DNA of 64,000 nt from an uncultured Bacteroidota bacterium (GCA_963851385.1 CAWKPE010000018.1:183968-247967); one strand, 5' to 3'; counted from the first letter of the stretch, positions 54,946-64,000 are shown. The notes: generated by a model from the letters alone, not told the origin. Made by a program: numbers and translations.

Positions 54946-57900
54946 ATGATAATTAAAAATAAAATTATTTCAAGTTTTAAAACCATACAGACAAGTTCAT
55001 TTTGTTCAAAACTTCTCATTGGCTGGTTTATATGCTTTAGCATTATGCCTGATTTGTTTTCACAGGATCAGGCAATTACTTTTAAATTTTATATTGACAA
55101 GTTAAATGCTTTGATTGATAAGAATAATCTGACCTCGCAGGCAAACCGGGTTTTTGTGTTAGATTGCAGGTACGATTATATAACAGGTAATAGTAGTAGT
55201 AGCGCTGAAAACGCAAATATTAATAATCAACTCTTAGATGCAAATAATAATAAATATGCAAAGAATAATATTGAAATATATTATATCAAATTAAATGCCC
55301 TGGTTAATAATCATGGTATTGATAAAATAAAAATTGACGACGCAAATGGCAAAACAACAAAAGAAATTGCAATGCCCTATTACTCTACTTATGATCCTGG
55401 AGTATTGGCTAAAACAGTATATAACTATAGCCAGGTTAGTAATAAAGGCAAATATGCAAAAGATGCTATATTAATTTTCGAATATCTTAAATACGATAGA
55501 ATAGATGAATATGGCATACTTCATTATTCTGTAAGTTGTAATTATGCATTCTGCTTACCTCCATATTATAGCGGGTATTATCAAAAGATAGATAATTATG
55601 TAAAATCAGCTGCAAATACGGGTTTAAATGTTAATGATAGAAATTTTATAGTAACTGGATTTTTGAACGGGTTAATCAGTTTATTTAATTTCAACAAAGA
55701 TCAAATAGGGCCCTACCAGACAGATGAAGTTATGCAACAACAAATGGACAATGAAGTCGTTCAAATGGCTTTATATATCCAAAACAAAATTAAGGATCCG
55801 AAAAATAACAAAAAGCATATTTTTATTGAGAATTATAAAAACACGAATGACGAACTTTATCTTCTGAATGATGATCAGCGTATATCTATTGAAAACAGTA
55901 TTTCAGAAATACCTGCTGATCAAAAAATATATGTTATTTCTAAAAAGATAAATATTCCATTAACGGCCAAGCAGGAACAGGAACATGACTATGATAACCG
56001 GATACAAGAATTTGAGGAAAAAGTTGTTGAAAAGGTATGTAACGATCCTGATTATTATTGTGGATTAAATAAAGCCACAACTACTTTTATTATTTTACCC
56101 TACTATGGTTACGAAGATGAATTATCGAATCCAATCTGGAGAATCTTTTATGGATACTACTCACCGATAACATTAACAAATACATCGATTTCACCTCACT
56201 CAATTGATGCCACAGGGTCCCCTACTATAGATCTCAATTATATTGATAATATTATTTCATGCATAGTCCCTAAAAGAACATTGGATTACTATCAGCAAAA
56301 GTTGGATGCAGCTTTTGCAAATAATTATGTGATGCCTCAGTCAAATAATGAATACGTATTAGGGGACGATGTCGGCAACTCTCAAAAAGAAAGAGATGAC
56401 CTATCAGCTAAATTATCAACATATTCCGGCGTTGTACCTTACGTAGTTCTTATTAATGAAAAATATCTTAGTAATGAAGATAAAACAAAGAGCGCTGCTG
56501 AAATTGCCAAATGGTTAGTTGAAAATAACGTTTCAAAAATTTCAAAAATAAATATAAATGGGTTTGTAATCATTTACAAACCTTCTATTGATAACGATGG
56601 CTCAGAAAAAAACACCCTGGAAAAGAATTTCGGGTTTTACACAGGAACTAAACTTAGCGGATTTGATGAAGATTTGAATACTCTGTTGCAACAAGAATTT
56701 AGCAATAAAAATATAGATGTAAATTTTGCATTAATAGGAAAATTTTTAGACGAATTAGAAAAATTTAAAATTTATCTACCCCCTGATAATTACTATGGTT
56801 CACCAAAACAAACGCGCGTACTGAATGAAGAAATTGATGATGAACTTGAAACACTTATACCAATATTTGAAGATTTTAATCGTAACCCATCAGTTCATAT
56901 ATATAAAGATGATTTAAGTGTGAAAAAAAATTGCATTAGCCCCGTTGATGAGGCCTCTATCGAGGACTTAGTTAAACGGTTAAATTCCGAAGGAAAAACA
57001 GCTTATATCATTTCAAAAAAAATTAATACACCTCTGTTGAATATTGACGCCTTCAATTACTATACACAAAAAGCTATGGAGAAGGCTAAAAAAATAATAA
57101 ACTTCTCAAACCCCCAATTAACCCTCATTTTATTGCCGTATTATAATTATAATAGTAAAACCTATTTTAATTACGCGTACGATAATTATAATTTGTTTAT
57201 TACTGAGACAAAAGTAAACATAGCAGAAGGAGAAAACCCTTATAACCTAAATTCTCCGTCAACTATAATGTATACTGAAGAACAACCGGAAATTGATGTC
57301 CAATTAGTAAAAAAAGCATTAGCTGTTTTATCTGAATGTCCTGTCTTGACAAAATTTGATGATTTTGCGAGTTCTATCAATAATGCTGTTGCCCAGAATT
57401 CTCATTTAGACCCCACTGATATGAATTTTGTAATAGGAGGCTGCCCCTTGGAAATGCTTGACATAAATAAAATAATTCAATCTTACATTATAGATATAAC
57501 TAAAAAAGTTCAGTCTGATAATTTAAATGGAACAAACAAGGTAAATACGTATGTTGTATTGTTTGACAAAAAATATGAATATAATAATATAGCAGAAGAA
57601 CTTTATAACAAAATAAGTGATGAAACAATAAAAGACAAGCTTCTTATCATAGCAAGAGTGCCTGTTACTGATGCCAAAGATGAGTTCAATTATTATTTCT
57701 ATACAAGCAATAAAATAAGCGGGTTCGATGACTATATAAAAGATAATATTTTTGATCCTGATAAAAAATATGGTGATGATTATTTTGCAAAAACTAAAAC
57801 CTCCGTAAATGATCTTTGTGAACTTTTTAAAACATTAGAGAGCTCCGGCTTGCTCTATCAGAACAGAGTTTCTGATAAGGAAATTAAAGATGAAGCTAAT

Positions 57901-63900: not shown

Positions 63901-64000
63901 TATGAATTTGCCACTAATCCTGCTAACTACCCGACAACTTTAAGTTCCAAACCGAAATTTATCAGAGATATATTATCATGTGGCAACGGGAAAAACGATT
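54946..64000 (+). CDS. giant exported protein, more than 3018 aa, 3' end beyond the window; function unknown
   Basis: I translated every 60-nt line from ATG 54946 to nt 64000 in this frame and met no stop codon. It has a signal-peptide-like N-terminus, five ~350-aa internal repeats and a hydrophobic helical hairpin near nt 61063-61230. It is not in the supplied ORF track, presumably because it has no in-window stop. Confidence 0.85.
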   Translation, partial: MIIKNKIISSFKTIQTSSFCSKLLIGWFICFSIMPDLFSQDQAITFKFYIDKLNALIDKNNLTSQANRVFVLDCRYDYITGNSSSSAENANINNQLLDANNNKYAKNNIEIYYIKLNALVNNHGIDKIKIDDANGKTTKEIAMPYYSTYDPGVLAKTVYNYSQVSNKGKYAKDAILIFEYLKYDRIDEYGILHYSVSCNYAFCLPPYYSGYYQKIDNYVKSAANTGLNVNDRNFIVTGFLNGLISLFNFNKDQIGPYQTDEVMQQQMDNEVVQMALYIQNKIKDPKNNKKHIFIENYKNTNDELYLLNDDQRISIENSISEIPADQKIYVISKKINIPLTAKQEQEHDYDNRIQEFEEKVVEKVCNDPDYYCGLNKATTTFIILPYYGYEDELSNPIWRIFYGYYSPITLTNTSISPHSIDATGSPTIDLNYIDNIISCIVPKRTLDYYQQKLDAAFANNYVMPQSNNEYVLGDDVGNSQKERDDLSAKLSTYSGVVPYVVLINEKYLSNEDKTKSAAEIAKWLVENNVSKISKININGFVIIYKPSIDNDGSEKNTLEKNFGFYTGTKLSGFDEDLNTLLQQEFSNKNIDVNFALIGKFLDELEKFKIYLPPDNYYGSPKQTRVLNEEIDDELETLIPIFEDFNRNPSVHIYKDDLSVKKNCISPVDEASIEDLVKRLNSEGKTAYIISKKINTPLLNIDAFNYYTQKAMEKAKKIINFSNPQLTLILLPYYNYNSKTYFNYAYDNYNLFITETKVNIAEGENPYNLNSPSTIMYTEEQPEIDVQLVKKALAVLSECPVLTKFDDFASSINNAVAQNSHLDPTDMNFVIGGCPLEMLDINKIIQSYIIDITKKVQSDNLNGTNKVNTYVVLFDKKYEYNNIAEELYNKISDETIKDKLLIIARVPVTDAKDEFNYYFYTSNKISGFDDYIKDNIFDPDKKYGDDYFAKTKTSVNDLCELFKTLESSGLLYQNRVSDKEIKDEANKLVDDFLKNVSPANKHWYFDNNFKCYPNNLSEFFSDASNIEQAEAFETNINLLSNIYNKSFYIVLQEISSPLTCNEQLNTFNKYAEQEFKSPDGTVKNIDKTDYAVLLIPYYKYSTVNSYGTINEEIDYYPNLCANNINFRNGNIPESIIIKSGKQDINIINEDFINNILANIVVERSPENYQKELDWLIDNNTKQNKYKKYVVGNSAVKKDWNSDFYTSIQNSNSFNNLNYYCVLIDKEDIDPNEVVNYLIDNSKISKEYGLLLAYNPSYTKGEKYAVRSGVFSNRLDSKFSVAVGNVTDNVDNPFEYLTNATSAINGILSSGYVGEEKKIYTPEERETEVQSFVDYFNDKFNKNPNQFVYTDIDNLNLDNFKDKLLYLSLLGGKQVYILRKQTSISILASEVNDFIKEISEKLDIKSIINSTNNLSNSVIIILPYHIYNDPVNNDQLTTKTFHGYYAGENIQFASVINSMITEKFDADKSLHYINDIINSINDKAIGTYSDQLNNLVSYNTGKNINEKVYLINNNWFEEFEDFNNTNNAIREMPYLNRYFDYYAIFDRQQNLDKVNMQKSVESIFDNVLLSPKQQGILQLVSPYNMSSVCTGVTKTSPELVNDNIRTQAINTALGTTPDNPYKYKFVEQFTNTINTDMSGPYLAPDDQYAGYTPYNGVCDYDYSKETLTPYVNSFVNWLNQELNNNTPDNYIISDDPDIPFKQISNVKALYNDRFKNFSDYDSKQIYIISKELDFPLKEQNLQDFVSDVFNKIELKNDKSNTGFIFMLRYKCNKNGVRNAVYRTTCTYICGDNIIIAKQIGESNNESPDNYKFDEQYPLHVYTQIYKTCKIFGYFITPTGDVFFKQFDTKTAGRPAIVNLSIFVDPDIIDGSSNINSQIYNFTNNYKKYYDYFNQLSSEQQIPIESTDDQITIEQIPSYKENYLKMITWMHQDGVLAQNTGGSYNGKLNSLDKYVELTDFKFSLPTGYIFSQFLIKEKAIKNHHKDIMCYTFQNHTFKGYGLSDAFISILKHCPPEDFKTVTFSDDEVYYKIVDWESVFYTSLGIASIPLSIAGLGIIPDIIFLAYAIEKQDFLQIALSMAGMPFSLGQVLEAIGKGLPFLTIKNLEQIASLYGLTIEKNEAGYIIRFSGNELAYCTENKLTLIGSFGNGLTVGQNYIFGQLKSDCEFLNFIKDNNGNLNEAIECLSLRCQKYSTDINFGLPKIFSKSLPDYGNLSNLQNQINKFKIGLINLNLEPKVFAQRLAIFKYRLVNTFGEDFYKYDKVAGLEAALNQYYPNQEARDIINYIEFNNNAKWIFDNDTYTLMLGDDEILKLGINASNSSGANSSEIISTLTLDGQEKKLIAVGFETDGPAQTRYFLKPVNEAGNASVEVIDYSKIKINDEFEELGSSTQIENTFTFKYSSSNTLYDNPEIVKDIITNKLNSSSINEIKIDVTDNPKTLIYVRNGMLNNVPDNEILNNLLSDDKIIETSEFKSVKAIQDGPDIYFALDKAGWNEKIEYLNSIFNKTLSKDETAELIEILNNDNSMYQLFAKIEKDEEITKMAKSWQSLYKISGNTDEKHFLINNAELLEVFNNSNEQDWLLNKLSNISSENLPEIITIATTLNQFPKESSIFFTILEKSGVKMSVNENKIILNDDFSGWSETYVSSATIENIDNIDDDPATPILICAGKGPDNSPIENAVADLPNTSEDVFIGGINVTDDITFESNPGYTQVHDNFTSVIYNAIDRFGNKKVVKSFGINSMDGRAINELRQTYPNSSDLEVAKTLPEYEKMKNKGYELSEVRRESGKIKLIYVPDLNVQLDLISQEIFGMGMDDLKISGLDLKYNGSNIELINLKLNNKIADVVINGNSSEIRISGESINGKVLNPLTSQYYNIDNSVNIYGAYDAKLNDFVNLIKDKDGNIMFRSTKDGILFPAESGKVWDFVEVEKVGNEFKYSVKPKDVNKSTYFGYSVYDEPSKSVSFDISVKDKLPAIKDGTKGHGIASLVYEFATNPANYPTTLSSKPKFIRDILSCGNGKND

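Follow-up and report, generated by a model that had tools for sequence, protein, structure and literature searches.

Does the 3' end of a 64,000-nucleotide (nt) stretch of DNA from an uncultured Bacteroidota bacterium (GCA_963851385.1, CAWKPE010000018.1:183968-247967; hereafter, the window) carry a real gene, and what might the product of such a gene do? The question arose from an open reading frame (ORF) on the + strand that starts with the ATG at position 54946 and continues to the window end, and in which the initial annotation had recognized no described domain family. The analysis shows that this is a large orphan gene for a large exported repeat protein with undescribed domains, rather than a new kind of system.

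Translation of the + strand from 54946 to 63999 gave 3,018 sense codons and zero stops, as first reported. The nearest upstream in-frame stop was found at 54931-54933, which makes ATG 54946 the earliest available start. When the bases of the region were shuffled 200 times, frame 1 contained a mean of 253 stops (minimum, 213), and the remaining five frames of the actual sequence contained 166 to 483 stops apiece. The GC content at codon positions 1, 2, and 3 was 0.39, 0.28, and 0.25, and the neighboring genes showed the same gradient. A chance open frame or an assembly artifact, with no gene present, has no support apart from the lack of database homologues. Both the stop count and the codon-position gradient argue against it, as do a five-fold internal homology that is detectable at the protein level only and a protein-level similarity to a paralogue (E, 1e-65), both described below. 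The chance explanation is effectively refuted already, and the presence of a real protein-coding gene, far beyond chance expectation, is confirmed.

The ORF track supplied with the window listed only one short antisense ORF (62767-63081) over this gene. The large ORF is missing because the track omits ORFs that run off the sequence end, in agreement with the presumption that only stop-terminated ORFs had been reported. The end of the gene was reached by a search that led from a neighboring tail-collar gene to the Logan contig ERR10755942_118662 and then to the protein cluster of the 1,352-amino-acid (aa) product of that contig. This cluster contains P0010, the source assembly's own gene call (NCBI/ENA, 334,460-bp contig), which has the same Met start as the window ORF, is identical to it over all 3,018 residues, and is 3,196 aa long. 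The stop is therefore placed at about 64534-64536 in window numbering, ~534 nt beyond the window end, and the window (54946-63999, + strand) shows the first 3,018 of 3,196 codons, i.e., all but 178 aa. A protein of 3,196 aa is large, though not extraordinary for Bacteroidota.

The N-terminal sequence quoted in the initial annotation was correct, and its likeness to a signal peptide was upheld. The putative signal peptide (aa 1 to 39; 54946-55062, + strand) has a K-rich n-region, the hydrophobic core LLIGWFICFSIM, and a predicted cleavage site between LFS and QDQ. It was called heuristically from a Kyte-Doolittle (KD) peak at aa 16 to 38 together with the cleavage context. Cleavage at this site would leave Gln at position +1 and therefore fits the Bacteroidetes Q-rule, which describes Gln at +1 after signal cleavage (PMC5837995).

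Following the signal peptide, aa 41 to 1806 form five tandem modules of 326 to 385 aa (~350 aa), with pairwise identities of 15 to 28% in a MAFFT alignment and with the anchor motifs YIISKxIxxPL and IxLPYYxY. BLAST did not detect these repeats. In a leave-one-out hidden Markov model (HMM) search, each of the five was detected with E values from 3e-18 to 2e-5, above all 200 shuffles. In order along the + strand, these are module 1 (aa 41 to 425; 55066-56220; E, 2.8e-6), module 2 (aa 426 to 771; 56221-57258; E, 2.9e-18), module 3 (aa 772 to 1135; 57259-58350; E, 1.6e-5), module 4 (aa 1136 to 1461; 58351-59328; E, 1.9e-8), and module 5 (aa 1462 to 1806; 59329-60363; E, 4.5e-6). By their sequences, the modules are ancient, strongly diverged tandem copies, each with two unrelated sub-domains. 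A duplication inside one module was considered and rejected, as the A halves and B halves were unrelated (hhalign probability, 0.1).

Only five alignment columns (N, Y, N, E, and Y) were invariant across the five modules, and no conserved catalytic-type residue set was present. So few invariant columns suggest that the modules serve in structure or binding and are not catalytic. An AlphaFold2 model of module 2, built from the five-module alignment, predicted helices alternating with strands at a mean predicted local distance difference test (pLDDT) score of 61. Foldseek of this model against the PDB gave nothing better than an E value of 9e-3, with template modeling (TM) scores below 0.2. The module motifs had suggested a TPM domain (PF04536, TPM_phosphatase), which none of the tests supported: Pfam gave no TPM match at an E value of ≤1, the module profile found none among the PDB sequences, and Foldseek gave TM scores of ~0.1 and no TPM structure.

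The modules are followed by a unique region (aa 1807 to 2805). It contains the sole internal hydrophobic region of the protein (aa 2034 to 2098; 61045-61239, + strand), in which a strongly hydrophobic, G/A/S-rich stretch of 31 residues (aa 2036 to 2066; maximum KD, 2.03) is separated by EKQD from an amphipathic hydrophobic stretch of 29 residues (aa 2070 to 2098). Internal repeats were absent from the C-terminal half of the protein.

The protein ends in a block that is shared with P0001, a 2,078-aa protein from NCBI/ENA encoded outside the window. The block (aa 2806 to 3195, + strand, from 63361, with 63361-63999 in the window) is 40% identical to P0001 residues 293 to 686 (E, 1e-65), measures 391 aa, and extends to the final residues of P0010. 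The 334,460-bp contig that carries the large gene almost certainly also encodes P0001, as a paralogue. The block opens with a beta-rich domain, which is present four times in P0001. An AlphaFold2 model of aa 2780 to 3018, made with the P0001 copies, had a mean pLDDT of 57; a beta-rich core of ~115 residues (aa ~2793 to 2907) was modeled at 70 to 95, and the remainder was low. Foldseek of this model against the PDB and BFVD gave no significant match.

The two proteins are alike in the beta-rich domain, a helical tail, and a similar I/N/K-rich composition, and they differ in that P0001 runs 1,392 aa past the point at which the large gene stops. P0001 has no signal peptide, no hydrophobic segment, and none of the 350-aa modules. 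In addition to its four beta-rich domains, it contains a helical region in two copies and an undescribed ~130-aa domain in three; the latter has an invariant H...SGHY.P (hereafter, SGHYxP) and is not present in the large window gene. No match to P0001 was found in Pfam, NCBIfam, or the PDB, and no relatives besides itself were found in 5.8 billion clustered proteins. The SGHYxP profile had no match in Pfam; its PDB matches were confined to designed "Cake" propellers and came from a short EDGTIY motif, not from homology. Neither the rest of the window nor the neighboring proteins contained a further module, C-terminal domain, or SGHYxP domain.

The impression that no described domain family is present was borne out. 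The 3,018-aa product, which is rich in N (10.9%), I (9.7%), K (8.3%), L (7.9%), S (7.7%), D (7.4%), and Y (6.4%), matched no family in Pfam (E ≤ 1), NCBIfam, or PHROGs, and the full-length HMM match to an adhesin or toxin family that could have removed its novelty was not found in Pfam or NCBIfam. The 178-aa tail of P0010 likewise had no Pfam or NCBIfam match. Sequence searches of the PDB with the large protein and with the module profile returned nothing relevant. The profile searches and the structure predictions followed by Foldseek, which had been suggested as a check, thus gave no family and no significant fold match.

An exhaustive phmmer search of aa 1807 to 3006 against 1.84 billion representative proteins gave two matches only, so that the homologues looked for in this region amounted to P0001 (E, 1e-30) and a weak similarity to P0002. 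The latter is GAH67557.1, a 268-aa fragment from a marine-sediment metagenome, and is 27% identical over aa ~2374 to 2549 (62065-62592, + strand; library-wide E, 7.8e-6). A word-indexed search was empty for both of its queries, the full protein and the alignment of the five modules. This is a weak negative, since it missed P0008, a cluster representative in the same collection that is identical over 1,315 aa. The cluster that holds P0008 also lists P0009, a 54-aa JGI protein without similarity to the large gene. No match was obtained by tblastn of both protein halves against plasmid and phage collections, and scans of viral contigs turned up no relative, with some alignments insufficiently conserved for scanning. 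Scans of genome and metagenome contigs with the last 500 aa pointed to a Selenomonadaceae locus, which proved to be a chance match, out of frame inside a rubrerythrin gene. Searches for the exact P0001 and P0010 products likewise gave no hit.

Does the long frame represent an intact gene? The Logan contig, an independent assembly of the same organism, was 99.955% identical to the window over positions 48391 to 59460, with two substitutions and three 1-nt indels, and every indel alters a reading frame. One indel falls in the large gene. At 58886-58892 (+ strand; codons ~1314 to 1316, where the two sub-domains of module 4 meet), the window has a run of seven A (A7) and the Logan contig has six (A6). 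The A6 allele shifts the frame, and the ORF terminates 37 codons farther on, which leaves two ORFs, the first with a product of 1,352 aa and the other at least 1,411 aa long. The single-ORF reading therefore depends on one homopolymer. In-frame stops on resequencing had been named as the result that could overturn the ORF; this came true in part, as the 1-nt deletion in the second assembly brings in an in-frame stop. Judged from the sequence, A7 is the coherent allele, because module homology crosses the site in frame and no stop interrupts the original frame for thousands of bases beyond it.

The other two indels are located upstream of the large gene. At 49287, the window has A5 and the Logan contig has A4, and the tail-collar gene accordingly encodes 284 aa in the former and 338 aa in the latter. 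At 50254, the window has an extra G, which splits a gene for a protein with PKD domains and a type IX secretion system (T9SS) sorting domain into 278 and 1,222 aa (ORFs in this analysis) or 278 and 1,121 aa (source calls), compared with one 1,442-aa gene in the Logan contig. The split at 50254 is present in the deposited sequence, where the source calls are P0013 (278 aa) and P0012 (1,121 aa).

These differences raise the possibility that the large gene is decaying or inactivated in a genome that accumulates frameshifts, and that the long ORF is a recent remnant, intact in one assembly and broken in the other. Such decay would account for the A6 break, the frameshifted PKD/T9SS gene, and the altered end of the tail-collar gene, and it is consistent with a glycoside hydrolase family 2 (GH2) beta-galactosidase gene in two frames at 14874-17031 and with an insertion sequence transposase within the window. 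P0010 also terminates exactly where P0001 carries on, a C-terminal truncation relative to the paralogue, and P0001 itself begins mid-architecture without a signal peptide. However, 9,054 nt with zero stops indicate that the frame was under selection until very recently, and the in-frame module homology across the A7 site and the open frame of at least 1,411 more codons past the Logan frameshift also argue against decay. The one-base indels may be mere consensus errors between assemblies. Decay is considered quite unlikely.

Alternatively, slippage between A7 and A6 could turn expression of a surface protein on and off. The sole difference within the gene between two near-identical assemblies is indeed a 1-nt change in homopolymer length, and a second of the three indels (49287) likewise lies in an A-run of a surface-protein gene. 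On the other hand, the tract, at 7 nt, is short for slippage to be efficient, the third indel (50254) lies outside any homopolymer, and the case consists of two observations. Phase variation is therefore regarded as very improbable.

The large gene had been described as the terminal and largest member of a co-directional cluster. It is the largest member, and it is co-directional with a tightly spaced array of genes for secreted proteins (39416-54907, + strand); as for the terminal position, it is the last gene visible in the window. The array encodes, in order, proteins of 567 aa, 1,729 aa, 677 aa (with fn3), 284 aa, 278 plus 1,222 aa, and 364 aa, and is followed by the large gene. The seven + strand genes from 39416 onward are separated by gaps of 0 to 77 nt, except at one place, where a 187-nt gap is reduced to 24 nt in the Logan contig. 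In five of the six upstream genes, the N terminus is hydrophobic and is followed by Gln (SQ, AQ, or SQ followed by Q), and the 1,729-aa gene is a probable further case. All seven genes are thus predicted from their signal-peptide-like N termini to encode exported proteins, with the 1,729-aa protein being a probable one.

Among the array products, the tail-collar (tail-fiber-like) protein (48441-49295) bears a signal peptide and matched the PHROG tail collar fiber family (E, 4e-19); its 338-aa Logan form additionally matched PTL_trimer. The gene with five PKD domains (49483-53812) encodes a T9SS type A sorting domain (Por_Secre_tail; TIGR04183 E, 1.9e-12). The 364-aa gene directly upstream of the large gene had no Pfam or NCBIfam match. 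The 567-aa (39416-41119) and 1,729-aa (41121-46310) proteins had no match in Pfam, NCBIfam, or PHROGs, and the latter has a second hydrophobic segment near its C terminus (aa 1635 to 1657). A scan for promoters and terminators gave counts no different from shuffles and was uninformative. The window as a whole is a low-GC (~33%) segment of a Bacteroidota chromosome, with housekeeping genes for enolase, class II ribonucleotide reductase, and Kdo transferase. A T9SS plug protein is encoded at 5297-6598 (E, 1e-41). The setting is assigned to a T9SS-bearing member of the Bacteroidota because of this plug protein and the Por_Secre_tail domain on the neighboring PKD gene.

What could the large protein do in this setting? 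We tentatively favor, at somewhat under an even chance, a lineage-specific, Sec-exported envelope or cell surface protein of a T9SS-bearing member of the Bacteroidota, a non-catalytic modular arm that is held in a membrane and takes part in contact or adhesion together with the exported proteins of the presumably co-transcribed genes. The protein would be exported by Sec, and the signal peptide would then be cleaved. The five-module array may form a long non-catalytic arm beyond the cytoplasm and serve as a scaffold or binding surface, with the hydrophobic segment at aa 2034 to 2098 possibly holding the protein in a membrane. The protein may cooperate with the presumably co-transcribed fn3, PKD/T9SS, and tail-fiber-like proteins at other cells or surfaces, either to adhere or to interact with other cells. 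The sequence itself shows export, modularity, and the hydrophobic element; localization and function are what we infer.

Several observations weigh against this assignment. No T9SS sorting domain, lipobox, or other outer membrane targeting signal was found. The modules are predicted to be alpha/beta, unlike the typical beta-sandwich stalk repeats of fibrillar adhesins. A strongly hydrophobic stretch of 31 residues behind 2,000 exported residues would more simply be an inner membrane stop-transfer anchor, which would be ill suited to a surface adhesin. Since the large gene stops where P0001 continues for 1,392 aa, it may not be fully functional, and the second assembly carries it in broken form.

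The hydrophobic segment and the paralogue also bear on a different possibility, namely, a toxin-like delivery protein. In such a protein, aa 2034 to 2098 would insert in or translocate across a target membrane, the beta-rich C-terminal domains would bind a receptor, and the paralogue family would carry effector-like domains (SGHYxP). The single central hydrophobic region within an otherwise hydrophilic exported protein is consistent with this, as are the repeated domain of P0001 with its invariant H...SGHY.P and a family that is fast-evolving and confined to one lineage. The order of parts (N-terminal domains, a hydrophobic region, and a repeated beta-rich C-terminal domain) loosely recalls the large clostridial toxins (TcdA/TcdB), which the protein also resembles in size class. 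The weak top rows of the Foldseek output included the TcdB CROP domain and glucansucrase repeats, but they were non-significant, with probabilities below 0.2.

However, no toxin, peptidase, glycosyltransferase, pore-forming, or pre-toxin family was found at an E value of ≤1. Unlike the large clostridial toxins, the 3,018-aa product comes from a Gram-negative host (Bacteroidota), carries a Sec signal peptide, and had no GT44, C80 peptidase, TcdA/TcdB pore-forming, or CROP/cell-wall-binding match in Pfam at this threshold. The likeness to these toxins is limited to the order of parts. Features of polymorphic toxins (RHS/YD; hemagglutinin repeats; PT-TG, PT-HINT, or PT-VENN; a C-terminal toxin) had no Pfam or NCBIfam match in the large protein, its tail, or P0001. 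The window gene does not contain the SGHYxP domain, P0001 does not contain any hydrophobic segment, and a Sec signal combined with so hydrophobic a stretch is expected to keep the protein in the membrane of the producer itself. A delivery function is therefore unlikely.

For the favored envelope or surface protein, the closest comparison is with the very large T9SS-secreted surface proteins, such as the SprB/RemA-type gliding adhesins, and with T9SS cargo that carries a type A or B C-terminal domain (CTD) (PMC9143113, PMC12618676). Like the SprB/RemA-type adhesins, the large protein has a T9SS-bearing Bacteroidota host, a Sec signal peptide, thousands of residues, and internal repetition, and its gene adjoins further genes for exported proteins, one of which is a bona fide T9SS cargo. 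The N-terminal Sec signal peptide that is expected of T9SS cargo was found by the heuristic call. In contrast, no T9SS sorting domain of type A (PF18962/TIGR04183) or type B (TIGR04131) was detected in the last 219 aa of P0010 (Pfam, E ≤ 10; NCBIfam, E ≤ 1), with the C terminus of P0010 taken as the true stop. The neighboring PKD protein, with the TIGR04183 match given above, served as the positive control in the same run. Unlike the SprB/RemA-type adhesins, the large protein thus has no type A or B CTD; it also shares no sequence similarity with them, contains an internal hydrophobic segment, and is built of ~350-aa alpha/beta modules at 15 to 28% identity instead of Ig-like beta-sandwich repeats. 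No PorP/SprF-like neighbor, the partner expected next to type B T9SS cargo, was detected upstream of its gene with Pfam or NCBIfam. Because the CTD, the defining feature of the SprB-type adhesins, is absent, the protein is not filed with them.

Fibrillar adhesins have a stalk of tandem Ig-like beta-sandwich domains, an adhesive tip, and an anchor in the cell wall or a membrane, whereas the modules of the large protein consist of helices and strands in the module 2 model, which is weak (pLDDT, 61). No Ig, fn3, PKD, or Big match was found in the large protein, although the same domains were readily found in its neighbors. Giant genes for proteins of >30,000 aa have been described in Omnitrophota and other phyla (bioRxiv 10.1101/2023.11.21.568195). 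The large gene resembles these in being a long, largely unannotated ORF that annotation or ORF tools tend to miss or fragment. It differs from them in that its product is an order of magnitude shorter, has one hydrophobic region instead of numerous transmembrane regions, and has no SecA-DEAD-like domain. At 3,196 aa, it also falls below the threshold of >5,000 aa by which "huge proteins" are defined (PMC11573180).

Several further observations were made in the window. The split GH2 beta-galactosidase adds a further frameshift or pseudogene to this assembly, with the N-terminal sugar-binding and Ig domains at 14874-15998 and the TIM barrel and domain 4 at 15976-17031. A DDE transposase gene (DUF772 plus DDE_Tnp_1; 22723-24084) is located between the enolase and arginine decarboxylase genes, and the local GC content is elevated, at 0.38 to 0.41, at 18 to 24 kb. 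Directly after the gene for a protein with a Fib_succ_major domain (33658-34542), 34550-36679 encodes a protein in which bacterial Ig domains are combined with a caspase (Peptidase_C14) domain at the C terminus. Just upstream of the array, 37077-38645 encodes a fusion of a response-regulator receiver, a PAS domain, and an adenylate/guanylate cyclase. The 1,151-aa protein encoded at 774-4229 had Eco57I-type and N6_Mtase methylase matches and is likely a type IIG/IIL restriction-modification enzyme.

The locus has consequences for how such genes are found and counted. ORF lists that drop end-truncated ORFs conceal the largest gene of this window, and one-base homopolymer differences between assemblies determine whether one ORF or two are read. 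Bacteria that have been poorly sampled commonly have large orphans restricted to their lineage, and there is so far no pointer to a new mechanism. Bacteroidota surface proteins are otherwise well catalogued. If it is made, the large protein would be a 360-kDa exported protein without a recognizable domain and would add several new domain families. Its C-terminal 1,200 residues, essentially without relatives among the 1.84 billion representative proteins, belong to the dark matter of protein space. The protein also poses the question of the route by which so large a Sec-exported protein reaches its destination when it has a hydrophobic segment inside and no T9SS signal. There is a rather slim chance that the large gene and P0001 are the founding members of an undescribed family of very large envelope proteins in the Bacteroidota, made entirely of new domains, which would be Sec-exported without a T9SS sorting signal and have a membrane-inserting central hydrophobic element. 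At the same slim chance, the new domains would be the two alpha/beta sub-domains that are repeated five times, the beta-rich domain, and, in the paralogue, SGHYxP. If true, such a family would represent, for the Bacteroidota, a new route or device in cell-cell contact or in delivery.

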